Below the pieces are notes generated by a model. That model saw only the letters and a list, made by a program, of their open reading frames with translations, made no database searches and had not been told where the DNA came from. A DNA stretch of 15,539 nt from an uncultured Nitrospirales bacterium. Its GTDB lineage: Bacteria > UBA10199 > JADGCS01. Both the position numbers and the translations under genes were made by a program. Each line of letters starts with the position of its first letter. Position 1 is the first letter of the stretch. Positions 1,998 through 15,539 of the stretch are shown piece after piece. The stretch is taken from NCBI GenBank assembly GCA_964526915.1, contig CAZGMS010000082.1:1-15539 (forward strand). Reading direction: 5' to 3'.

Positions 1998-2099
1998 AAA
2001 AAATAGTCTCTGATTGTTTTAATCTGGGCTTAAGGCTCAAGGCACAAGGTGTAAGGCGTCAAAATCGCCCTATGCCTTACGCCTTTAGCCATGCGCCCT

Positions 2100-2672: not shown

Positions 2673-4016
2673 CTAGCGCTGAGCCTGAATTTCAATGGTC
2701 GTTTCCGAAACGGATTTCACCACACCAGAAATCGAGGCGTGGTAGTTGGTCCCCAAGGCCCCTGCTGGGCAGGGCGCAATCAAATCTCCCAAGCTGACAG
2801 TCTGACCCTGTTTGACAACAGGCAGGGATTTGGCTCCCACATGCCGGTGCAAGGGGACAATCACATCAAAAACATTTTGATAACCCAGATAAGGGGTTTC
2901 TTTTTTGTATTTCAGTAAATCCAGTTTTTTAAGAAGCACATCAATCGCCACCTTGCGGTCTTCATAGGCACTGTTGCAGGTGGTGGGCTTGCTGTTGTGC
3001 GGGTTTTTCACGCCTTTGGCAACGAGTTCCCTGCGGTAAGCGGCATAGATTTTTTTGGGGGAGAGACGCATGACATCGCACGCGACCATCTCGCACATCC
3101 CGCACTGACTGCACAAAAAGGCCGATGTGATGTTTTGCGTGGGTTCAGATAAATTGTAATCGATGGTGCGCATGGTGGCATGCGGGAAAATCGCGTGCCC
3201 CAACAGGTTGCGAGGGCAGAGGTCGGTACAGCGGAAACACTGACAACATGCCGCCTTGGAGAGTTTGATCATTTGCCCTACGCTGAGGGTCTTGGCGCGC
3301 ACTACAAAATGATCGCGTGGCAACACAAGCACACCACTGCAGGTTTTGGCGATGCCGAGAGAAAGGTCATCAACGATATTGCCCATCATGGGACCGCCAT
3401 CAATCACGACAGGGTTATCGGTAGTGATTCTGCCTGCCAGGGCGAGGAGTGTTGTGTAGGGGGTGCCGATGGGGACCTTGACGACGCAGGGTTTTTCGAC
3501 TTCACCGGTAATGGTTACCATTCTCTCGGTGACAGGCTTGCCATTGACGGCGTCGGTCATTTGGTAGAGAGAAAGGACGTTGCTCACGACCACGCCCACG
3601 TTGAGTGGCAGGCCACCTTCGGGGATGATCCGTTTTGTCGCATCATAAACAGTCAAGAACTCATCACCTGCGGGATAATAATTTTGAAGTTTGTGAATAT
3701 GAATATTTTGTTTGGGATCGAGTGCCTTGGTGAGCGCGTTCACCACATCGGTATAGTGCCCTTTGACAGCGATGATTCCCTGTTTGGCGCCGGTGGTCTT
3801 CATGGCCAGGGCAACACCTGTAACCACCTGATCCGCGTGTCTGATCATGAGGGTCTTGTCGGTGTTGAGCAGGGGCTCACATTCGGAACCATTGGCGAGC
3901 ACGGTGTCCACGCTGGCTTTGAGTTTGATGTGCGGGGGGAACCCGCCGCCACCGGCACCCACGATGCCTGCATTAAAGACGGAGTTGATGATATCGTTTG
4001 CTGTCAAATGGTTCAT
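2673..4016 (-). CDS. PduS-like RnfC-family Fe-S flavoprotein (BMC-associated oxidoreductase)
   Basis: Collinear with PduS throughout: GIVGAGGGGFPPHIKL, YPAGDEFLT, GGPMMG, two Cys clusters (CCQCFRCTDLCPRNLLGH and CSQCGMCEMVAC), and a C-terminal GALGTNYHASISGVV. The likely start at 4016 overlaps the AldDH stop by 1 nt (TGATG); the ORF track extends it to 4049. Confidence 0.9.
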   Translation of the reverse strand: MNHLTANDIINSVFNAGIVGAGGGGFPPHIKLKASVDTVLANGSECEPLLNTDKTLMIRHADQVVTGVALAMKTTGAKQGIIAVKGHYTDVVNALTKALDPKQNIHIHKLQNYYPAGDEFLTVYDATKRIIPEGGLPLNVGVVVSNVLSLYQMTDAVNGKPVTERMVTITGEVEKPCVVKVPIGTPYTTLLALAGRITTDNPVVIDGGPMMGNIVDDLSLGIAKTCSGVLVLPRDHFVVRAKTLSVGQMIKLSKAACCQCFRCTDLCPRNLLGHAIFPHATMRTIDYNLSEPTQNITSAFLCSQCGMCEMVACDVMRLSPKKIYAAYRRELVAKGVKNPHNSKPTTCNSAYEDRKVAIDVLLKKLDLLKYKKETPYLGYQNVFDVIVPLHRHVGAKSLPVVKQGQTVSLGDLIAPCPAGALGTNYHASISGVVKSVSETTIEIQAQR

Positions 4017-5470
4017 CAAATAATCCTGAAATACCCCGAGACCACGCACCGCCTGATTTTGGTAAAGTGGCGAGCGGTGGTCACGCCCTCACCTGTGGGT
4101 GAGGCGATCGTAAAGGACGCGGGCCCTTCGCCGTCCATGCCCAATCCGGACAGAGCCATCCCGTTTTTCACAAAAATGGAGGTGCCCATCTTCACGGCCA
4201 TGTTGTGCAGGTTTTCGATATTCTTGGAATGCATGGCCGAGGTGTGGAAGCGTCCCCCCTCGAGCTCGTACGCGCAGTCGATGGCTTGATTCACATTGCC
4301 CACGCGGATGAAAGGCACCACGGGCAGGAGCATTTCGATTTGCGCGAACGGGTGTTTGTGATCGGTTTCGGTGATGGCAAGCCTGATGGCGGGGTCCACA
4401 TCAATCCCAATTTGTTTCAAGATGTGCTGAACGTCTTTGCCCACGAAATCCTTGTTGGGGTGGTCACCGTCCACAATCACTTTTTCGAGTCGTTTGGCGT
4501 GATATGGTGTGAGTTCAAACGCGCCGCTTTTCAGCAGGGCTTTTTTAAACGGATCGGCGGCTTTTTCTGTCACAATGATTTCTTTTTCGATGGCGCAAAT
4601 GATGTTGTTGTCGCAACTCGATGAGGTGATGATGTCGCGGGCGGCTTTGTCGAGATCGGCCGTTTCGTCCACCACAACAGGCGGGTTGCCGGGACCTGCC
4701 GCGACCACACGTTTGCCTGTGCCCATGGCGGCCTTGACCACAGCGGGTCCGCCGGTCACCACCAGAAGTTTAATGTCCTTGTGATTCATGAGCTGGTTGG
4801 CCGAGGCAATGGTGGGGGTCGCGATGGTGGTGAATAAATTGGGGGGGCCGCCTTCACTGATGACGGCCTGGTTCATGAGGTCAATCACAAAGACCGAGAT
4901 TTTTTTGGCTGTGGGGTGCGGGTTGAAAACCACCGTGTTGCCTGCGGCGATCATGCCGATCCCGTTGCAGATGATGGTTTCTGTGGGGTTGGTGCAGGGA
5001 GTGATGGACCCGATCACACCCCAAGGGGCCTTTTCCAAAAGGGTAAACCCGTGATCACCTGTGAAGGTTTGTGGCTCGATGTCTTCAACGCCCGGTGTTT
5101 TGTTGATGGCCAACAGATTTTTTTTGATCTTGTCTTCGACTCTGCCCAGACCGGTTTCTTCACGGGCCATCTTTGAGAGCAGTTCCACATTGGCTTTGCA
5201 GAGGTCCCTGATTTTTTGGATGATGCGTTTGCGTTGTTCGAGTGAGATTTGTTTGAAATCGTCCAGAGCCTTGACGCTGGCCGCGATGGCGTCGTCGATC
5301 GAACCAAAACAGCCACGGGAACCAGTGAACGCGGCGTCTTTTTTGGGTTCCTGTTTGGAGACGGTCGCTGTTGTGTTCGCAGGACGTCCAGCAGGCGGCG
5401 TGTCTTTGACCTGAATTTGAGACACCACCTTATCGACAATGGAACTGATTTGTTCGTCGGAGAATTTCAT
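4016..5470 (-). CDS. CoA-acylating aldehyde dehydrogenase (PduP/EutE family) with N-terminal encapsulation peptide
   Basis: 484 aa. The N-terminus MKFSDEQISSIVDKVVSQI is an encapsulation-peptide helix followed by a linker. ALDH fold with catalytic Cys region SSSCDNNIICAIEKE and the PduP-like GPGNPP motif. Confidence 0.9.
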   Translation of the reverse strand: MKFSDEQISSIVDKVVSQIQVKDTPPAGRPANTTATVSKQEPKKDAAFTGSRGCFGSIDDAIAASVKALDDFKQISLEQRKRIIQKIRDLCKANVELLSKMAREETGLGRVEDKIKKNLLAINKTPGVEDIEPQTFTGDHGFTLLEKAPWGVIGSITPCTNPTETIICNGIGMIAAGNTVVFNPHPTAKKISVFVIDLMNQAVISEGGPPNLFTTIATPTIASANQLMNHKDIKLLVVTGGPAVVKAAMGTGKRVVAAGPGNPPVVVDETADLDKAARDIITSSSCDNNIICAIEKEIIVTEKAADPFKKALLKSGAFELTPYHAKRLEKVIVDGDHPNKDFVGKDVQHILKQIGIDVDPAIRLAITETDHKHPFAQIEMLLPVVPFIRVGNVNQAIDCAYELEGGRFHTSAMHSKNIENLHNMAVKMGTSIFVKNGMALSGLGMDGEGPASFTIASPTGEGVTTARHFTKIRRCVVSGYFRII

Positions 5471-5477
5471 AGGTCAG

Positions 5478-5682
5478 CGTGAATCGTGAATCGTGGATTG
5501 TGGATCGTAAAATGGTTTGTCATCCCAGCGGAAGCTGGGATCCAGAACTGTTGACAGTAGGGATTTCTGCTTTGGTTCGACTTTGCTCACCACCCTGAGC
5601 GCCTGTCGAAGGGTCGCAGGAATGACATACCTACTCAACAATTCGCATTTCGATCCACGATCGACGACCCACAACCCACGAT
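5478..5682. repeat. MITE-like element copy A: heptad-repeat terminal inverted repeats flanking hairpin 1 plus an expanded hairpin 2
   Basis: Left end (CGTGAAT)2-CGTGGAT-TGTGGAT-CGT, then AAAATGG + GTCATCCCAGCGGAAGCTGGGATCCAGAACTGTTGACAG ... CGCAGGAATGAC...CAACAATTCGCATTTCGA. Right end TCCACGA-TCGACGA-CCCACAA-CCCACGA. It fills the whole gap between the BMC-P stop (5684) and the AldDH start (5470). Confidence 0.75.
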
Positions 5683-5683
5683 A

Positions 5684-5977
5684 TTACGGATTCTTCACAT
5701 ACCTTTTGTCGCCATCGATTTCCAAAATATCGACAATGGCCATGATGACGGCATCGACCGGTTTGTTTTCGGTTGCTTGTGTCATTCTGGCCGAGGAGCC
5801 GCTGGCGACCAAGACAACTTCGCCAACACCCGCACCGACAGAATCCGCGGCCACCACAAAACTGCCAGTGGGTTTGCCATCGGTGTCGACATATTTGACC
5901 AGTTGCAACCTGAGGCCCTCAAGTTTTTCGTCCTTGCGGGTGGCCACAACGGTTCCTACAATTTTGCCTAGTTGCAT
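5684..5977 (-). CDS. BMC vertex protein BMC-P (EutN/PduN family), paralog 3
   Basis: True start [27 protein letters not shown] at 5977. The track ORF is artificially extended into the repeat. Canonical EutN/CcmL signature. Confidence 0.85.
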
Positions 5978-5984
5978 AAAACAG

Positions 5985-6187
5985 CGTGGTTCGTGGATCG
6001 TGGGTCGTGGATCGTGGATCGAAAAATGGCTTGTCATCCCAGCGAAAGCTGGGATCCAGAACTGTTGACAATAGTCATTCCTGCTTTCGCAGGAATGACT
6101 ATCCGCTCAACAATTCGCATTTTGACCCACTATTCACGACCCACTATCCACGATTCACGACTCACGATCCACGATCCACGACCCACG
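5985..6187. repeat. MITE-like element copy B (most complete copy): 5 heptads, hairpin 1, hairpin 2, 9 heptads
   Basis: CGTGGTT-CGTGGAT-CGTGGGT-CGTGGAT-CGTGGAT, then AAAAATGGCTTGTCATCCCAGCGAAAGCTGGGATCCAGAACTGTTGACAATAGTCATTCCTGCTTTCGCAGGAATGACTATCCGCTCAACAATTCGCATTTTGA, then nine copies of NYCACGA. It sits between the BMC-H stop (6193) and the BMC-P start (5977). Confidence 0.8.
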
Positions 6188-6192
6188 AAAAA

Positions 6193-6489
6193 TTACTTTG
6201 CCACTTTTTTGACATTGCGACCCAAAGGCAAAGCCACATCGATATTCTCGTGTGGTCTGGGGATGACGTGAACGGAAACGAGTTCGCCAACCTTTTCGGC
6301 TGTTCTGGCGCCGGCTTCGGTCGCGGCTTTCACGGCGGCCACATCACCTCTGACAATCGCGGTCACAAAACCACCACCAATTTTTTCGTAACCAACAAGT
6401 TCAACCTTGGCGGCTTTCACCATGGCGTCACTGGCCTCGACCATTGCGACAAAACCTTTGGTTTCGATCATTCCTAATGCGTCTGCCAT
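6193..6489 (-). CDS. BMC hexamer shell protein BMC-H (PduA/EutM/CcmK family)
   Basis: True start [60 protein letters not shown] at 6489 with AAGGAG RBS. The track ORF is over-extended upstream. First gene of the operon. Confidence 0.95.
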
Positions 6490-6600
6490 ATCAATCTCCT
6501 TTATTAACGATTTAGAGGCCCCCTTATTACTATTACAATAGGGAACCAAGTTTGGTCGGCATAGACTTTTTTTTTGGGGACTGTCAATAGTTAATGATAT
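6490..6600 (-). promoter_or_regulatory. Candidate sigma70-type promoter and structured leader of the BMC operon
   Basis: On the minus strand: TTGACA (plus 6583-6588), an 18-nt spacer, TATGCC (plus 6558-6563), and a ~60-nt leader containing a CCCT...AGGG inverted repeat with a TATTAC direct repeat just before the RBS. It lies in an AT-rich, >400-bp non-coding region. Confidence 0.3.
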
Positions 6601-6717
6601 TATCGTTAAAGAAAACCACATTCAAAATCATTTTATAATAACACGAGATATTTAGTGATATATGATGCTATTTAATGGTTGATGATTAGTGCCAATTGTG
6701 ATAATCAGTTTCTAGAT

Positions 6718-6912
6718 TGCGGATTGTGGCTCGTCATTGAGAGGGTGAACTGCGTTGGAATTGCCAAAAGGCAATTTTAATACTGTGCCCCAAGGGATAC
6801 CGGGGTAATCCAGAAATGATACTGTGGATTGCTTCGATTCGCTTTGTGAATCTCGCAATGACCAGCTGTTTGTACTTTTAGACGATTCACGAACATCGAT
6901 CCACGATCCACT
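6718..6912. repeat. Degenerate copy (E) of the heptad-TIR element
   Basis: Left end GCGGATTGTGGCTCGT matches copy A CGTGGATTGTGGATCGT at about 14 of 17 positions. The internal CCCCAAGGGATACCGGGGTAATCCAGAAATGA is homologous to hairpin 1 + ATCCAGAACTGTTGA. Right end CGATTCACGAACATCGATCCACGATCCAC. Confidence 0.4.
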
Positions 6913-6918
6913 CTTCTC

Positions 6919-7104
6919 ATGCAATATTCCGAAGTCATGACAACCAACGAGGCCATGAAGTACCTCAAAATCACCCGCAAGACCCTGCTCAAATTGGTCA
7001 AAACGGGTGAGCTCAAGGGCGCCAAGGTGGGCAAGGATTATCGCTACCTCAAAAGCGAGATCGACAAGTTTCTCAAAGGGGAAAAAGAGGAACGGCTGTT
7101 TTGA
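6919..7104 (+). CDS. Excisionase-family helix-turn-helix DNA-binding protein (alternative start at 6937)
   Basis: MTTNEAMKYLKITRKTLLKLVKTGELKGAKVGKDYRYLKSEIDKFL is the excisionase/MerR-type HTH pattern. It begins right after a heptad TIR, and its stop TGA lies in a GAATCGT heptad remnant. No clear RBS. Confidence 0.6.
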   Translation: MQYSEVMTTNEAMKYLKITRKTLLKLVKTGELKGAKVGKDYRYLKSEIDKFLKGEKEERLF

Positions 7105-7113
7105 ATCGTATCT

Positions 7114-7179
7114 TGTCATCCCTGCGAAGGCAGGGATCCAGTTTCTGTCATCCCTGCGTGGTCCCTGCCTTCGCAGGGA
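7114..7179. repeat. Hairpin 1 (GTCATCCCTGCGAAGGCAGGGATCCAG) followed by a second fused hairpin (GTCATCCCTGCG-TGGT-CCCTGCCTTCGCAGGG)
   Basis: Same hairpin 1 as the MITE core but with compensatory changes in the stem (CAGC/GCTG becomes CTGC/GCAG). It sits immediately upstream of the GIY-YIG gene. Confidence 0.6.
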
Positions 7180-7199
7180 GGGAACCAGAGCATAGATTT

Positions 7200-7487
7200 A
7201 TGAAGACATACTATGTGTATATTCTTGCCAGCAAAAAAAATGGCACATTGTATGTCGGTGTTACGAGCAATTTGTCCAAAAGAATATTTGAGCACAAACA
7301 AGACCTGGTGGATGGGTTCACAAAAAAATATGGGGTTCATTCTTTGGTTTATATTGAACAAACAAATGATGTGAACGACGCATTGCTTAGAGAAAGAAGA
7401 TTGAAGGCTTGGAAGAGGCAATGGAAAATAGATCTGATTGAAAAATCGAACCCGAATTGGAACGATTTGTATGAAGATTTGTTTTAG
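7200..7487 (+). CDS. Small GIY-YIG nuclease family protein (~95 aa, COG2827-like)
   Basis: True start MKTYYVYILASKKNGTLYVGVTSNLSKRIFEHKQ (GIY...YVG motif with downstream R and E). The track ORF is over-extended upstream through the hairpins. Confidence 0.85.
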   Translation: MKTYYVYILASKKNGTLYVGVTSNLSKRIFEHKQDLVDGFTKKYGVHSLVYIEQTNDVNDALLRERRLKAWKRQWKIDLIEKSNPNWNDLYEDLF

Positions 7488-7494
7488 GAAACAT

Positions 7495-7520
7495 GGATTC
7501 CTGCTTTCGCAGGAATGACA
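7495..7520. repeat. Hairpin 2 (GGATTCCTGCTTTCGCAGGAATGACA), the MITE core second hairpin, immediately downstream of the GIY-YIG gene
   Basis: Near-identical to GTCATTCCTGCTTTCGCAGGAATGAC in copy B. The following GCTATAAATTCGG resembles the MITE GCTCAACAATTCGCA. Confidence 0.6.
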
Positions 7521-7537
7521 AAGCTTTGAGCTTTGAG

Positions 7538-7779: not shown

Positions 7780-7813
7780 CAATTGGCAATGGGCAATTGG
7801 CAATGGGCAATTG
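7780..7813. repeat. Tandem 14-mer CAATTGGCAATGGG x2.4, i.e. three palindromic CAATTG hexamers at 14-bp spacing
   Basis: Seen directly. It lies between the stop of the 889-aa gene (7837) and the start of the FmdB gene (7768). Confidence 0.7.
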
Positions 7814-7836: not shown

Positions 7837-10506
7837 TTATGCGGCTGTTCTGGGGAGCCTGTTCTCGTCCATGATTCTTTGATGGGCCAGTCTTTGCAGG
7901 TATGTTCGGATGATGGGATATTTCTCCATCATGTCCTTCAGATCGGCCTCGCTAAAACGAAGGACGGTGACATGGCCTTGCGCACTGACATTTGCCTTGC
8001 GTGCCTGATGGTTGATGGAGGCCATTTCGCCGACTACCGTTCCGGGACCAACTGTGATTCTACGGTCATGGGGCGCATATGACCAGATCTCCGCTAGGCC
8101 ATCCACAATCAGAAAGGCGTCTTTGTTGGTGTGATCGCCCTCGGCGATAAATCGATTGCCCGCGAACATGGTTTCTTCGCTGGCAATCATGAGCAAGGCG
8201 GTGAGGATGGCGTCCGAAATATCAGGCAGGGCCTGTTTGAGCAGGCGATAGTATTTTTTTCGGAGTTCTCTAACGTGTCGCAGCGTCTCAGTGTGCTGAC
8301 CAAGTACCTCGGTCAGCGTTTTGGCAGAAAAAGTCAAAACCTGTGAGGGCATGGAGGCCACAGCACTGGCGTTACGAGGTTCACCAAAGAGTGCTCCCTC
8401 ACCGATGATCCCAAAGGGCACATGGGTGAGTTCCGAACCGTCAGCGTAAAGTCTGAATCCGCCCGAGACAATCATTCTGACAGAGGTGTCTGTTGCGTCG
8501 CTTCCTGCTGTTGCCTCATCTTGAAGCATCAACACCGCTCCTATGTCAAACGTGGCGAGTGTGGTGGCCGCGGCCAAAGCCTGCTTTTGCTCGGTGGACA
8601 GGCCCGCCAAAAGGGGTGACCATTCAATGAAGCGCAAATTTCTCTCTTGTATGCTGTCTTCTGTTTCGGGCTGTTTGGGAAAATGATTGGCCAGCGAAAT
8701 AAATCCCTGATGACCCGCCAATAGTTTGGGGACACCCACCTGGGCCGCTCTGCCGTCACTCACGTGATAGAATTTGACCCGATTCAACACCTCATGCAGT
8801 TCGACTCCTTTTTTTTCTGCAAAAGTCTTGAGCCACGCCAGGGTGACTTCGGGATCGGTATGCAGACCCTTCATGCCAGCCTCAATCAAAATCATGGGAG
8901 GGTTGGGCTGATCCCAGGTGCTTTCCAAAAGATGTTGGTAACGCAGAATTTCGGCCTTGCGTGCCGGGTGCATATCAGGAAACAGCCGATCCAGTTCGGC
9001 AGAATCAGCCAAAGTATCTCCACTGATGTAGAGCGCGAGTTGGCCCCCTGTGTCCGCAGGCGCTGTCCAGACTTCAATGGCCTCGGCGGCCACAGAATGA
9101 CAGGTGTAGTGGGTTCTGAGCCACATGCCCCGGACCGCAACGAACTGTCGAGGTTTGAGTTCCACAAAATTCAATTGAGTCAAACCCTCGGGTTTGCCAT
9201 TAACGGCGATGCTTAGGGTGTATGCATCCTGACAAATATTGTACAAGGTTTTTGTTCCGTACCAATTGAGTTTTGGGCACAGGAACATGAGTTCTATACT
9301 GGCAGGAGTGAAATGATCGGTGTGATCATGTGTGATGGCGATGCCCTCCACCGCGTTCAAGGGAATCCCGTTTTGTATGAGATAAGCAACCGTCTGTGCC
9401 GGGGGGTCGATCAGCGTAACCTTGCCATCCTTCCAAAGCATGAACCCGCTGGTGCCCTCGCCCGAAAAATAATCCGCTGTGCTGATGGGCCAAAGACCTG
9501 CTTCGCCGTCTATCAAGACCCGTTTGCGGATTTCCTGAAACTTGGGATCGAACATGGTTCTGGGATCAACATCGAGATTTTCCACGGGCGGGGCGAATTC
9601 CGGTTTGCCCAGATCGATAGTGCGTAGCAAATGCCCGCGATCATAAATTTCGTACGCCATGGGTCCTTTTTCCTGAGCCTGTTTGACGACAACGCTACCA
9701 TCCCCGATCGTGATTTCGTCGTTCTCAAAATGGGTGACTCTGGAAAAGTCCTCGGATGCCTTGTTGGCGAAACGCTGTGTTTCAGTGCCCAAATCGGGAA
9801 TGCCCTCTTCATTGGAAGCATGTTCGTCTCGTACACTGTCGGTCAGTTTTTGTGGGTTGCGTCCCTGAAAGGCCTCTTTCAAAAAGGCACTGACTTTCCC
9901 TGCGTCACCCGGGGTTGGCAAATAAAAATTAAACCCAGCTTGTTGCAAGAGCGGCCAAAAGTAGGGATAACGGGTAAAGTCTACCGCGTGATAACCCGTT
10001 GTAAATGTCGTGTAACCTTTGACAGGCACATAGTGCAGGGGCATGTAATGACCGAGTTTATCAGAGGGTGTTTTGCCGGGTTGTCCGCCGTTTTTAAAGA
10101 ACATCTGAATGGCATCGAGGTGCGATCCCATGGGGAGCCCCAACTGTACCCAACCTTGAGACGTGTAAACGGCAACGCCACCGCGCCTCATTTTTTGCAC
10201 ATAACCGTATGGTTTGCCAATGGGGCCTGTGTTATCGGAACCGCCTGTTCCACCCGGGCGATCAGTGGATTGTGGGGCGTCCGAGCTTGGTGTTGCAGGT
10301 GCGGCAAGCCTTTGCGCTGCAGGTTTTCTTGTTTGCCTTCCCGTCAAATGTGCAGTTTGGGCCGTTGCACCAGCAAAGGCGGCATAACGACTCGCCAAGC
10401 TTTGTGTTGCCTTACCGCGAGTTGGATTGCCTGTGGAAAGGATGAAAACGTTTGGTGCGACGGGTTGTGCGAGTGGGGCTCTTAAGGCGGTGGTTGCTGT
10501 GTTCAT
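7837..10506 (-). CDS. Large multidomain protein: disordered Ala/Thr/Pro-rich N-terminus, an unknown domain, a metallo-beta-lactamase-fold hydrolase domain, and two C-terminal cyclic-nucleotide-binding (CAP-like) domains
   Basis: 889-aa ORF with GGAGG RBS 5 nt upstream of ATG 10506. MBL motifs ITHDHTDHF (HxHxDH), later THYTCHS, YISGDT and FYHVSDG. The cNMP-binding signatures FGIIGEGALFGEPRNASAVA and VGPGTVVGEMASINHQARKANVSA are each followed by coiled-coil-like helices. Confidence 0.8.
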   Translation of the reverse strand: MNTATTALRAPLAQPVAPNVFILSTGNPTRGKATQSLASRYAAFAGATAQTAHLTGRQTRKPAAQRLAAPATPSSDAPQSTDRPGGTGGSDNTGPIGKPYGYVQKMRRGGVAVYTSQGWVQLGLPMGSHLDAIQMFFKNGGQPGKTPSDKLGHYMPLHYVPVKGYTTFTTGYHAVDFTRYPYFWPLLQQAGFNFYLPTPGDAGKVSAFLKEAFQGRNPQKLTDSVRDEHASNEEGIPDLGTETQRFANKASEDFSRVTHFENDEITIGDGSVVVKQAQEKGPMAYEIYDRGHLLRTIDLGKPEFAPPVENLDVDPRTMFDPKFQEIRKRVLIDGEAGLWPISTADYFSGEGTSGFMLWKDGKVTLIDPPAQTVAYLIQNGIPLNAVEGIAITHDHTDHFTPASIELMFLCPKLNWYGTKTLYNICQDAYTLSIAVNGKPEGLTQLNFVELKPRQFVAVRGMWLRTHYTCHSVAAEAIEVWTAPADTGGQLALYISGDTLADSAELDRLFPDMHPARKAEILRYQHLLESTWDQPNPPMILIEAGMKGLHTDPEVTLAWLKTFAEKKGVELHEVLNRVKFYHVSDGRAAQVGVPKLLAGHQGFISLANHFPKQPETEDSIQERNLRFIEWSPLLAGLSTEQKQALAAATTLATFDIGAVLMLQDEATAGSDATDTSVRMIVSGGFRLYADGSELTHVPFGIIGEGALFGEPRNASAVASMPSQVLTFSAKTLTEVLGQHTETLRHVRELRKKYYRLLKQALPDISDAILTALLMIASEETMFAGNRFIAEGDHTNKDAFLIVDGLAEIWSYAPHDRRITVGPGTVVGEMASINHQARKANVSAQGHVTVLRFSEADLKDMMEKYPIIRTYLQRLAHQRIMDENRLPRTAA

Positions 10507-10790: not shown

Positions 10791-12086
10791 ATGGATGTCC
10801 TTTTTTTGTCCCGCCTGCAATTTGCCGTGGCCACCCTGTTTCATTTTATCTTTGTCCCACTGACTTTGGGCCTCTCGATCATTGTGGCGATTTTCGAAAC
10901 ACGCTATGCCAGAACTGGTGACGAGCTTTATCTCAAGCTCACCAAATTCTGGGGCAAACTTTTTCTCATCAATTTTGCCTTGGGGGTGGTGACGGGAATC
11001 ACACTGGAGTTTCAGTTTGGGACCAACTGGTCCCGTTATTCGGCCTTTGTGGGCGATATCTTTGGATCACTGTTGGCCATCGAGGCCACGGTCGCGTTTT
11101 TTTTGGAATCCACACTCGTGGGGGTGTGGATTTTTGGCTGGCAAAAACTCTCGCCCAAAAAGCACGCGCTCATCATGTGGCTCATTGCTGTGGCGGGCAC
11201 GCTCTCGGCGGTGTGGATCATTCTGGCCAATGGGTGGATGCAGAATCCAGTGGGTTACGTGATCAAAAATGGACGGGCAGAGCTGGCAAGTTTTAGTGCC
11301 GTGTTTTTTAACAAGTACGCGTGGCTGGAGTTTTTTCACACCATGAGTGCGTCGTATTTATACAGCGCCTTTTTTGTGATGGGAGTGAGCGCGTATCATC
11401 TCATTAAAAAACAACATGTCGATTTTTTCACACGTTCTTTCAAATTGGCCCTCTGGTTTGGTCTGGTGTGTTCGGTTTTGGTGGCCTTTAGCGGTGACCT
11501 GAACGGCGTGAACGTGGCCAAAGTCCAACCTGCCAAACTCGCCGCCATGGAATCACACTGGCAAACGAGCGCCAACGCGCCCATGAAGCTTCTGGTTTGG
11601 CCCGATGAAGAGGCCGGTAAAAATGCATTTGAAGCCTTTTCGGTGCCGTCGGGATTGAGTTTGCTGGCGTTTCACGATCCTCATGCCACAGTGAAAGGGT
11701 TGCGCGATTTTGCCCAGGAGGATCGTCCACCTGTGCTCATCACCTTTGTGGCGTTCAGGGTCATGGTGGCCATTGGGGGCTTGCTGATTCTGCTTTGCGT
11801 GATCGGGGTTTTCAAACGCAACCGCCTGACCGGGTCCAAATGGTATTTGAGGGCCATGTTGTTTACCTTGCCTCTGCCTCTTGTGGCGATTGAACTCGGC
11901 TGGGTGGTGACTGAGGTGGGGCGGCAACCCTGGATTGTGTATGGGCTGATGCGCACGAGCGATGCGGTCTCGCCGGTCGTGACCTCGCAGGTGTTGACCT
12001 CGCTCATTTTCTTTTTTCTGGTTTATGGACTCTTGGGCGCTGTGGGGGTGTTGTTGATGGCAAGACACGTGAATCGTGGTTCGTGA
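10791..12086 (+). CDS. cydA: Cytochrome bd-type quinol oxidase subunit I (CydA), short Q-loop type
   Basis: MDVLFLSRLQFAVATLFHFIFVPLTLGLS...KFWGKLFLINFALGVVTGITLEFQFGTNWS...GRQPW aligns with E. coli CydA. At ~431 aa it lacks the long Q-loop insertion. The track ORF begins at an upstream in-frame TTG; ATG 10791 matches the family N-terminus. The last 5 codons and the stop lie inside the MITE. Confidence 0.93.
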   Translation: MDVLFLSRLQFAVATLFHFIFVPLTLGLSIIVAIFETRYARTGDELYLKLTKFWGKLFLINFALGVVTGITLEFQFGTNWSRYSAFVGDIFGSLLAIEATVAFFLESTLVGVWIFGWQKLSPKKHALIMWLIAVAGTLSAVWIILANGWMQNPVGYVIKNGRAELASFSAVFFNKYAWLEFFHTMSASYLYSAFFVMGVSAYHLIKKQHVDFFTRSFKLALWFGLVCSVLVAFSGDLNGVNVAKVQPAKLAAMESHWQTSANAPMKLLVWPDEEAGKNAFEAFSVPSGLSLLAFHDPHATVKGLRDFAQEDRPPVLITFVAFRVMVAIGGLLILLCVIGVFKRNRLTGSKWYLRAMLFTLPLPLVAIELGWVVTEVGRQPWIVYGLMRTSDAVSPVVTSQVLTSLIFFFLVYGLLGAVGVLLMARHVNRGS

Positions 12087-12217
12087 ATCGTTGTTCGTGG
12101 GGTGCTCTGTCATTCCAGCCTGTCAGCCATAGGACTGATCCCGCTCTGCGTGCGCTGGGATGACAAAACACATTTCGATTCACGATTCACGATCCACGAT
12201 CCACGATCTGCGAGAAT
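12068..12217. repeat. MITE-like element copy C between cydA and cydB (heptad TIRs plus a variant long hairpin)
   Basis: CGTGAAT-CGTGGTT-CGTGAAT-CGTTGTT-CGTGGGG, then GTCATTCCAGC-(34 nt)-GCTGGGATGAC, then AAAACACATTTCGA + TTCACGA-TTCACGA-TCCACGA-TCCACGA-TCTGCGA. Confidence 0.7.
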
Positions 12218-12219
12218 TT

Positions 12220-13248
12220 ATGTTTTTACAATCAATCTGGTTTTTTATTTGGGGGCTTTTATGGGCCATCTTTTTTGCGACCGATGGTTTTGATTTTGGC
12301 GTGGGCACGCTCTACCCTTTTTTGGGCAAGACAGAGCATGACAAGCGCGTGATGATCAATGCCATTGGGCCTTTGTGGGATGGCAATGAGGTGTGGCTCA
12401 TCACCGCAGGTGGGGTGACGTTTGCAGCCTTTCCTCAGGTTTACGCCGTGATGTTCTCAACGCTGTACACCCCTCTCATGATCATCTTGTTTGCGCTCAT
12501 CCTGCGCGGTGTGGCGTTTGAGTTCAGGGGCAAAGTGGATTGTCCCCGGTGGCTCAAAATTTGGGACGCAGCAATTTTTATTGGGAGTGTTTTGCCCGCT
12601 TTGTTATTTGGTGTGGCGTTTGGCAATATTTTTATGGGCATTCCGTTTGATGCTCAGGGCCTGAATCATGGCGGGTTACTCGATCTGATCAACCCGTATG
12701 GTTTACTCACGGGCTTGTTGTTTTTGCTGTTGTTCATCCAGCATGGGGCCTTGTGGCTGGCGGTGCGGTCAGGCTCTGCCCTGCATGACCGGGTCGTCAC
12801 TGTTGTGCGCACCAACTGGTTTGTTTTGCTGATAGTGGCGGTTTTGTTTTTTGTGGCCACGTATTTTGTTACGGATTTGTACGACAATTATATTGCACAG
12901 CCAGTTTTGTGGGTTATTCCTGGCCTGGTAGTTCTTTCGTTATTTGGTGTGCGTTTATTTTTGCGGCAAAAAAAATATTTATGGGCGTGGGTCGCTTCGG
13001 CGGTCACAATTGTGGGGGCCACATTTTTTGGCATCACGGGGCTTTTTCCCCGACTTTTTCCATCAAGCATAGACTCTCAATTTGATCTGACGGCGTTCAA
13101 TGCCTCGTCATCGCAGGACACACTTACCATTATGCTGGTGGTGGTGGCTGTCTTTATCCCCATAGTGATTGCATACCAAGTCTGGGCGTACCGGCTTTTT
13201 TCGCATAAAATTGACCACGACAATTTTGAGCGGGTTGTGGTGTATTGA
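12220..13248 (+). CDS. cydB: Cytochrome bd-type quinol oxidase subunit II (CydB)
   Basis: True start MFLQSIWFFIWGLLWAIFFATDGFDFGVG (DGFDxGVG CydB signature). Polytopic membrane protein. The track ORF is over-extended upstream through the repeat. Confidence 0.9.
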   Translation: MFLQSIWFFIWGLLWAIFFATDGFDFGVGTLYPFLGKTEHDKRVMINAIGPLWDGNEVWLITAGGVTFAAFPQVYAVMFSTLYTPLMIILFALILRGVAFEFRGKVDCPRWLKIWDAAIFIGSVLPALLFGVAFGNIFMGIPFDAQGLNHGGLLDLINPYGLLTGLLFLLLFIQHGALWLAVRSGSALHDRVVTVVRTNWFVLLIVAVLFFVATYFVTDLYDNYIAQPVLWVIPGLVVLSLFGVRLFLRQKKYLWAWVASAVTIVGATFFGITGLFPRLFPSSIDSQFDLTAFNASSSQDTLTIMLVVVAVFIPIVIAYQVWAYRLFSHKIDHDNFERVVVY

Positions 13249-14629: not shown

Positions 14630-14830
14630 GATACGTAATTATGACCATAATTGCAACAAAAATGTTCTAAGAATGACCATATTTAGAACACGAAGGTAAT
14701 TTTCTGATAATGCTGGGCAATGTGTTTCAGGGCGTCCAATAATTAGGACATTTGTCTCATAATTATGACACTTGTCTTAGTACTGGGACAGTCTCTGGGA
14801 CAGGTACTGGGACTGGTCCTTCAAAAACAT
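14630..14830. promoter_or_regulatory. Operator-like palindromes and direct repeats upstream of the ATPase gene
   Basis: Perfect IR AATTATG-AC-CATAATT (about 14635-14650). IR GTTCTAA-N12-TTAGAAC. Two direct repeats ATAATTAKGACAYTTGTCT each containing GACA-NN-TGTC. Three copies of TACTGGGAC. Confidence 0.3.
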
Positions 14831-15085: not shown

Positions 15086-15141
15086 CGTGGATCGTGAATC
15101 GTGAATCGCGGATCGTGAATCGTGGATCGTGGATCGTGGGG
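15086..15141. repeat. Heptad-repeat inverted repeat, left arm (8 x CGTGGAT/CGTGAAT) flanking the four-helix-bundle gene
   Basis: CGTGGAT-CGTGAAT-CGTGAAT-CGCGGAT-CGTGAAT-CGTGGAT-CGTGGAT-CGTGGGG, read directly. Confidence 0.75.
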
Positions 15142-15148
15142 AAGTGAG

Positions 15149-15511
15149 ATGAAAATTCAATCGTATAAAGATTTGGAAGTTTGGAAGACAGGGCTCGAGA
15201 TTGTAAAACTTGTTTACAGTGTGACCAAAAAATTCTCAAAGAGTGAGTCGTTTGGCCTGACGTCCCAAACGCAGAGAGCGGCAGTATCAATACCAACAAA
15301 TATTGCCGAAGGATTTGCGCGACGATACACAAAAGAGTTTACTCGATTTTGCTATATCGCGTTGGGTTCATGTTCAGAATTAGAAACTTTGGTGATCATT
15401 GCGAAGGAACAAACACATTTAACGGGAGATGATTTTAAGAAGTTGACAGAATTGTTGGATCACGAAAGTCGAATGTTAATGAGCCTAACCAAAAAACTGG
15501 TTAACCATTGA
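15149..15511 (+). CDS. Four-helix-bundle protein of the 23S rRNA intervening-sequence family (TIGR02436-like)
   Basis: MKIQSYKDLEVWKTGLEIVKLVY...QRAAVSIPTNIAEGFARRYTKEF...ALGSCSELETL matches the conserved pattern of IVS-encoded four-helix-bundle proteins. Confidence 0.8.
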   Translation: MKIQSYKDLEVWKTGLEIVKLVYSVTKKFSKSESFGLTSQTQRAAVSIPTNIAEGFARRYTKEFTRFCYIALGSCSELETLVIIAKEQTHLTGDDFKKLTELLDHESRMLMSLTKKLVNH

Positions 15512-15539
15512 CATCGATCCACGATCCACGATCCACGAT
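15512..15539. repeat. Heptad-repeat inverted repeat, right arm (CATCGAT-CCACGAT x3), truncated by the window end
   Basis: Reverse complement of the left-arm heptads. It begins 1 nt after the stop codon. Confidence 0.7.

Follow-up and report, generated by a model that had tools for sequence, protein, structure and literature searches.

Repetitive extragenic palindromes and bacterial interspersed mosaic elements (REP/BIME) stabilise upstream segments of mRNA, for example malE-malF. The hairpins of Correia elements are cleaved by RNase III when they form part of an mRNA, and the stems of intervening sequences (IVS) in 23S rRNA are excised by the same enzyme. The short tandemly repeated repetitive (STRR) sequences of cyanobacteria are reportedly heptamer repeats with small dispersed repeats nested in them. 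Here we describe two palindromic repeats, copies A and B, that fill neighbouring gaps of a bacterial microcompartment (BMC) operon on contig CAZGMS010000082.1 of an uncultured Nitrospirales bacterium (15,539 nt, analysed as a whole and referred to as the window). The initial annotation of this DNA had likened them to REP/BIME, and both are indeed REP-, BIME- or MITE-like (miniature inverted-repeat transposable element) palindromic repeats that lie inside a transcription unit. We regard them as probably non-coding, non-autonomous composite repeats of a selfish or neutral kind that would also affect translational coupling and decay of the mRNA. The part of this reading that concerns identity and origin, a composite repeat inserted secondarily, is very likely correct, and the part that concerns coupling and decay is put forward tentatively.

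A further system for comparison was defined in Neisseria: the NTS (CGTCATTCCCGCGMAVGCGGGAATCYRG) and a degenerate Ssn-related motif (SRM), HGTCWYN(0-2)YYVSBRHN(0-5)WNVSBRGN(0-2)RNCYNB (PMC11893778, Nat Commun 2025). In the portion of that paper on which we draw, single-domain GIY-YIG proteins of about 94 amino acids (Ssn) cleave single-stranded DNA beside NTS/SRM hairpins and leave RNA and duplex DNA uncut, and the ssn genes typically have hairpins on both sides (NTS-ssn-NTS).

Copies A and B and the gaps they fill

The operon is read from the minus strand in the order BMC-H, BMC-P, aldehyde dehydrogenase (AldDH), RnfC/Nuo51-like, BMC-T, two further BMC-P and DeoC aldolase. Copy B (5978..6192, minus strand) makes up the whole 215-nt gap between the genes for the BMC-H shell protein (6193..6489, minus strand, PF00936) and the EutN/CcmL-type BMC-P (BMC-P3; 5684..5977, minus strand, PF03319). 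Copy A (5471..5683, minus strand) makes up the whole 213-nt gap between this BMC-P gene and that of AldDH (4016..5470, minus strand, PF00171). The BMC-H stop codon (TAA, 6195-6193) is followed by five T and then by the heptads of copy B, which start at 6187; at the other edge the last CACG ends at 5985 and 7 nt (ctgtttt) lead to the BMC-P ATG at 5977. The heptads of copy A begin 1-3 nt past the BMC-P stop codon (TAA, 5686-5684), and from its last CACG, which ends at 5478, 7 nt (ctgacct) lead to the AldDH ATG at 5470.

Each copy consists of a left arm (CGTGRAT)n and a right arm (ATYCACG)n around a convergent pair of hairpins. In copy B the 5' arm of the mRNA (6127-6188) contains about nine units and the 3' arm (5985-6021) about five; those of copy A occupy 5651-5682 and 5478-5508. 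Across 171 aligned columns, the non-heptad junctions included, the copies share 86% identity and thus represent one non-coding element of about 205 nt. B has extra heptads, and A has a nested insertion of 41 nt (5573..5613, no strand assigned), a small palindrome of the form TTCGAC...GCTCACCACCCTGAGC...GTCGAA that sits in the loop of hairpin 2 and has no counterpart in B. This insertion is a third layer of repeat inside repeat. Since the genes that follow the two copies differ, we rejected tandem duplication as their source.

A mis-join driven by repeats during metagenome assembly could place such copies in gaps artificially, and repeat-rich assemblies do break at these arrays: a 548-nt contig (L206) has a heptad array at its start and breaks off about 70 nt past the other arm. 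For the window this explanation is extremely improbable. The order BMC-H, BMC-P, AldDH is exactly conserved synteny, the conserved stop and start codons at both flanking junctions are intact, and copies that differ at 14% of positions plus indels are not a collapsed repeat.

Exact-sequence look-ups of the window BMC-P and AldDH returned no record, and the nearest AldDH in a set of 5.8 billion proteins has 84% identity, so that there is no near-isogenic empty site for comparison. We therefore surveyed the gaps of more distant orthologs, of which 62 loci had the upstream BMC-P located and 59 the full BMC-H-BMC-P-AldDH order. Across the 62 loci the BMC-P/AldDH gap mostly measures -15 to 35 nt and the BMC-H/BMC-P gap mostly 5-7 or 50-100 nt; the short gaps have purine-rich runs resembling a Shine-Dalgarno sequence (SD) across the stop codon. 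From the precise placement of the two copies the initial annotation had argued for a target preference or for selection. The placement indicates neither, because most of the 62 operons have gaps of no more than 35 nt, which points to tiny ancestral gaps. Gaps beside unrelated genes are filled as well. With ancestral gaps this small any tolerated insertion must touch both genes, and the copies abut stop and start codons because there was almost no other non-coding DNA to enter. According to the reading that we favour, the BMC-H-BMC-P-AldDH cluster was ancestrally tight, and A and B would be secondary insertions, primarily of a selfish or neutral nature, into two of its very short spacers.

Interior hairpins and a GIY-YIG gene

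The interior of both copies, a pair of hairpins of the types GTCATCCCAGCGAAAGCTGGGATCCAG and GTCATTCCTGCGAAAGCAGGAATGAC facing each other, resembles the NTS/SRM system. Hairpin 1 of copy B (6032..6059, plus strand, TGTCATCCCAGCGAAAGCTGGGATCCAG) matches the SRM exactly; it is the one exact match in the window, for which shuffled windows predict 0.07. Hairpin 1 of copy A (5518..5545, plus strand) and a hairpin of the more distant copy D (12134-12165) match with one mismatch each. Hairpin 2 of copy B (6074..6102, minus strand, GTCATTCCTGCGAAAGCAGGAATGAC) resembles the NTS and converges with hairpin 1, and a stretch of 23 nt in it is identical to a hairpin at 7497-7519.

This last hairpin flanks a single-domain GIY-YIG gene about 1 kb from copies A and B. 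The gene (7200..7487, plus strand) codes for 95 amino acids that match PF01541 at 4.8e-15, and together with NTS/SRM-like hairpins at 7112-7190 and 7497-7519 it forms a region (7105..7525, plus strand) with the NTS-ssn-NTS layout. Within it the hairpin at 7114-7141 shares 23 of 28 positions with the NTS consensus as read by eye; the hairpins flanking the gene do not match the degenerate SRM pattern as given in the source, even if one mismatch is allowed. A structural search with the 95-aa protein had a single, weak result, UPF0213 protein 1zg2 (E 0.005). Judged from its sequence, the protein is a candidate Ssn-type single-strand DNA nuclease of the cd10448 clade.

The locus therefore shares with the Neisseria system the motif of its hairpins, their scatter over intergenic DNA and a GIY-YIG gene placed between hairpins. 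It differs in that the convergent doublet sits inside long inverted heptad arrays, an arrangement that the cited portion of PMC11893778 does not describe. The two layers also occur apart: one orthologous operon (L002) has a hairpin doublet without heptad arms in one gap, and another (L005) has a single hairpin of the Ssn-related kind in the BMC-P/AldDH gap. An SRM-type interior combined with heptad arms makes A and B composites, in which an Ssn-type hairpin doublet is nested within a heptad palindrome.

Heptad elements in the window, in related operons and in metagenomes

The initial annotation had placed the elements in the BMC-H/BMC-P and BMC-P/AldDH gaps. The boundaries that it gave are those read from the sequence, but their distribution is wider: the window contains at least five elements with such arms (A-E). 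Copy C (6716..6911, plus strand) is more diverged and has the same arms, one of which stops 7 nt short of the SD-less start codon (ATG) of a divergent gene (6919..7104). This small gene of the HTH_17/excisionase family lies upstream of BMC-H, is kept in all close relatives of the operon (L001, L002, L201 and L202) and likely encodes a regulator of the BMC operon. At the orthologous site just upstream of it (window 6882-6918, L001 8846-8882) the heptads differ in sequence and the 7-nt periodicity is kept.

Copy D (12068..12208, plus strand) lies between cydA and cydB, with the same arms and, on the minus strand, the single SRM-like hairpin mentioned above. The cydA frame enters the left arm and ends at a TGA (12084-12086) within a CGTGAAT unit, so that the last six codons and the stop (HVNRGS*) are left heptad arm (window 12060-12222); the cydB ATG at 12220 follows 14 nt past the last CACG. 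Copy E (15086..15539, plus strand) has CGTGRAT arms at 15086-15139 and from 15515 to the window end around a PF05635 gene (15149..15511), annotated as 23S rRNA IVS protein (IVP), and has only these arms in common with A and B.

Other heptads occupy two further gaps; in all, the heptads belong to at least four sequence families. An AAGGCNT/ANGCCTT palindrome (2026..2099, minus strand) fills most of the BMC-T/BMC-P2 gap and begins immediately past the BMC-T stop codon, and a CAATTGG/CAATGGG array (7780-7813) lies in the gap upstream of a zinc-ribbon gene. Across elements the number of units per arm varies from 4.4 to 9, and some arrays show a super-period of 21 nt. Upstream of an AAA_14/DUF4143 ATPase gene (14636-14817) there are direct repeats of another make: TAATTATGACCATA twice, a 20-nt unit twice and the 12-nt GTACTGGGACAG three times. 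Almost all window gaps longer than about 60 nt owe their length to repeats of the heptad kind, which makes two filled neighbouring gaps unsurprising and supports selfish DNA over a purpose-built regulator; the former is what A and B look like.

The same junctions are occupied in close relatives by other sequences. In L001 the BMC-H/BMC-P gap of 162 nt contains a perfect 14-bp hairpin (z -4.9) and the BMC-P/AldDH gap of 51 nt contains TAAGGC heptads and GAGG. In L002 the first gap (214 nt, z -11.3) combines a hairpin with a MITE-like element different from A and B, and the second (26 nt) has GAGGAG. In L201 the gaps measure 269 nt, with no significant structure, and 190 nt; in L202 they measure 103 nt, with a hairpin (z -2.6), and 3 nt, with no SD. 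Three of these four relatives (L001, L002 and L202) thus have stable hairpins unrelated to A and B in the BMC-H/BMC-P gap. The initial annotation had envisaged orthologous operons without insertions as the reference state. L001 and L002 have an SD at both starts, which the window lacks. Three close relatives have unrelated hairpins or heptads at the same or neighbouring junctions. In L002 copies of the different MITE-like element (inverted repeat GGKTCTGTTCAAAAATG) bracket BMC-H at 9010-9150 and 9545-9670, that is, a second repeat family colonised the same junctions.

In L202 a heptad palindrome of unrelated sequence (AAACYCT.../GTTTAGA..., 5461-5588) spans the AldDH/RnfC junction from 1 nt past the stop codon to an SD-less ATG, where the genes overlap by 1 nt in the window and in L001. 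A direct repeat, TATGAC, stands on both sides of it and is possibly the duplicated ancestral ATGA stop/start overlap. This palindrome is an independent replicate of a junction insertion in the same operon. Per 10 kb, the window has 7.7 period-7 arrays, L001 has 8.4 and L202 has 9.8, compared with about 0.6 for all other orthologous loci together; this clade is thus marked by heptad colonisation of intercistronic spacers.

A scan of metagenome contigs with three CGTGRAT units found the family at no fewer than 120 loci, and the GC content of the 22 heptad loci inspected ranges from 0.42 to 0.73. Among the matches listed many are arm-loop-arm palindromes of 58-160 nt, some with cargo, and solo heptad arrays are common. 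In the same set 22 of 144 outer array ends (15.3%, compared with 4.4% at random positions) have, no more than 15 nt away, the ATG of an ORF (open reading frame) with 100 codons or more, mostly with no SD in the spacer, and 11 strand-views combine an upstream stop codon at -19 to +23 nt from the left arm with a start codon 4-27 nt past the right arm. Filling of stop-to-start gaps is a general trait of the heptad family. The distance from array to ATG ranges from 0 to 27 nt in the family, and we rejected a fixed spacing as a structural rule. Viral contigs gave only 20 matches, and so the family is not phage-borne. A literature search for the heptad strings found no paper containing them.

All close homologs of the window PF05635 protein that the analysis found have heptad arms. 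The short contig L206, from a groundwater metagenome, codes for a protein 98% identical to it and completes the right arm of copy E, after which come AAGGAG and the next gene. In L203-205 (73-74% protein identity) the cassette begins 1 nt past a stop codon and ends 8 nt before the next ATG, in L207-209 the arms are of a different heptad and still mutually complementary, and in L189 and L210 full palindromes stand on both sides of the gene. Upstream of a MopE-like gene, L203 and L207 have the IVP gene at the same position with different heptads around it, periodicity and arm complementarity being kept. Heptad arms also flank ispH in L158, which indicates that a gene between two arms can be a coincidence.

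Could the heptads have arisen in place instead, by slippage in each gap, with gene conversion between gaps 514 nt apart making A and B alike? The unequal unit numbers of the arms, the abundance of solo arrays, the 21-nt super-period and the different heptads at the orthologous sites upstream of HTH_17 and around the IVP gene would all fit such an origin. It does not explain why A and B have about 105 nt of complex non-repetitive interior and junctions in common, why the sub-terminal junction recurs in copy D 6 kb away, or why near-identical IVP cassettes with the same arms occur in different genomic contexts, and we consider it improbable.

Copies A and B have terminal inverted repeats, fall within 50-500 bp, contain no ORF and occur in multiple copies, as MITEs do. 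With Correia elements or NEMIS (Neisseria miniature insertion sequences), ERIC (enterobacterial repetitive intergenic consensus) sequences and other MITEs they share a length of 100-250 bp and a location between co-transcribed genes, but they lack sequence similarity to them and a clear target duplication of fixed length, and their inverted repeats are microsatellite-like and length-variable. They resemble the REP/BIME and REPIN elements of proteobacteria in being high-copy extragenic palindromes, often located within operons, co-transcribed and arranged as inverted doublets; they differ in lacking the GTAG/CGTC head, in arms made of tandem 7-nt units and in being far longer (about 205 nt). 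We found no RAYT-like ORF in the window, nor an autonomous parent insertion sequence with a transposase; a single relative has an ORF, and this encodes a PF05635 protein, not a transposase. The likeness to the STRR of cyanobacteria extends to tandem heptamer arrays in several families, intergenic or intra-operon location and nested small hairpins, and in the window, L001 and L202 the density of period-7 arrays exceeds that of the other loci more than 10-fold. The host, however, is not a cyanobacterium (nearest named relatives are labelled Deltaproteobacteria or bacterium), the heptads are others, and the arrays typically form pairs of inverted arms. Only copy E and L203-L210 recall the 23S rRNA IVS with a PF05635 ORF (Leptospira type), in which inverted repeats bracket the gene and a long stem is possible. 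These cassettes lie between protein-coding genes and not in rRNA, and A and B have no ORF; probes for rRNA genes found none in any of the fetched loci, in which all copies lie between protein-coding genes.

Folding, translation and mRNA decay

The inverted arms had been predicted in the initial annotation to pair into long stems, and folding of the full elements on the mRNA strand confirms this potential: copy A reaches -91.9 kcal/mol (z -6.4) and copy B -115.7 kcal/mol (z -11.4), and for each none of 200 shuffles was as stable. At the base of the rod the stop and start regions pair with each other, so that at the foot of each rod of about 200 nt the stop codon and the downstream AUG are separated by about 10-12 unpaired nt. 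A scan of 5300-7000 for GC-rich stems with a T run and for -35/-10 hexamers found no site inside A or B, and an internal promoter, a leaderless transcript and a terminator were rejected on this ground. An Rfam E-value scan of the entire window gave no relevant match.

The starts next to these rods are genuine. The N-termini of BMC-P and AldDH (MKFSDEQI) are conserved in orthologs, with which they agree at 81-84% identity. Scoring the anti-SD duplex energy over the 20 nt upstream of each start, we obtained +0.1 kcal/mol for BMC-P3 and +0.3 kcal/mol for AldDH, and neither gene has an SD, as the initial annotation had stated. Its further statement that all other genes of the operon have AAGGAG or GGAG was too broad. 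BMC-H (which has AAGGAG) and BMC-P1 score -8.7 kcal/mol each, BMC-T -6.5 and DeoC -5.9, but BMC-P2, likewise preceded by a heptad hairpin, reaches only -2.9, and the ATG of the RnfC-like gene overlaps the AldDH stop codon by 1 nt (TGATG).

How could such insertions be tolerated? We suggest that it is the stem that makes the repeat tolerable, since it shortens the distance between stop and start codon to about 10-12 nt. As the stem begins 1-5 nt past the stop codon, a terminating ribosome would already have opened its base and thereby freed the strand immediately before the next AUG, and initiation there would thus be coupled to upstream translation. Translation of BMC-P and AldDH would then depend mainly on ribosomes that finish the preceding gene at the foot of the stem, unwind the stem and re-initiate. 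This proposal agrees with the overlapping stop/start junctions TGATG and ATGA of the same operon, and it would account for the tolerated insertions at coupled junctions in the window, in cydAB and in L202. In the mRNA the rod would in addition hold up exonucleases that work from the 3' end or serve as a target for a double-strand RNase, and the BMC-H segment would benefit from this.

A rival reading, in essence that of the initial annotation, is an adapted post-transcriptional regulator, in which the stems are kept because RNase III or exonuclease stalling stabilises BMC-H, lowers BMC-P and the enzyme, and so sets the shell stoichiometry. Regulation of shell stoichiometry by these stems is plausible as a putative effect: they are very stable, the architecture of the shell requires far less BMC-P than BMC-H, SD loss is confined to the genes downstream of elements, and L001, L002 and L202 have unrelated stable hairpins in the same BMC-H/BMC-P gap. 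That the elements are maintained for this purpose is unlikely, because the family also lies beside unrelated genes (cydAB, HTH, IVP) and fills gaps generally in metagenome contigs, the L201 gap has no significant structure, and the copy in the BMC-P/AldDH gap would lower a core enzyme. Folding shows no strand asymmetry, promoter and terminator signals are absent from A and B, and the interior motifs are sites of a nuclease that, in the cited portion of PMC11893778, acts on single-stranded DNA and not on RNA.

The heptad stems might also act as intervening sequences of the mRNA, either through SD-less, shunt-like re-initiation across the rod or through excision by RNase III with the PF05635 four-helix-bundle protein as the factor that recognises the arms. 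We think this improbable. Shunt-like re-initiation of this kind is, to our knowledge, not described in bacteria, and as a partner of the arms the PF05635 protein is a weak candidate: an HMM scan found 2 such genes among the 120 heptad-selected loci listed and none in 80 BMC loci. If true, this reading would provide a widespread, undescribed family of heptad palindromes with a sequence-specific cellular partner.

Several observations weigh against the composite selfish or neutral repeat with coupling and decay effects that we prefer, the scarcity of PF05635 genes at heptad loci being one of them. No mobilising enzyme emerged: none of the window ORFs scanned contains a transposase domain, and Ssn nucleases are not known to transpose anything. 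The candidate target-site duplications (TTTT for B, TAT for A) are weak, as they are short, AT-rich and adjoin fuzzy element ends. With an SD at both the BMC-P and AldDH starts and longer gaps, the closest orthologs L001 and L002 leave the pre-insertion state of the window lineage uncertain. As for the RNA-level part, sense and antisense fold energies are alike, with no consistent bias across A, B, C and D, and therefore give no sign of selection on the RNA. Serial SD-less coupling would moreover keep AldDH at or below the abundance of BMC-P, which is odd for a cargo enzyme.

Three features of these elements were unexpected. Their arms are microsatellite-like, with periodicity conserved while sequence is not; the CGTGAAT version is spread over very different GC contents; and SD-less start codons stand directly at a stem base. 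A compact, coupled operon can evidently absorb inserts of 200 nt exactly between stop and start codons with its genes intact, and three junctions of the window and one in L202 offer a natural test bed for SD-less re-initiation over a long hairpin. For annotation these repeats call for caution, since in this clade gap-filling copies give rise to spurious ORFs and can change C-termini, as in cydA. For the biology of the family, one composite joins three poorly understood systems: heptanucleotide arrays outside the cyanobacteria, Ssn-related hairpins and the cassettes of the PF05635 '23S IVS protein'.

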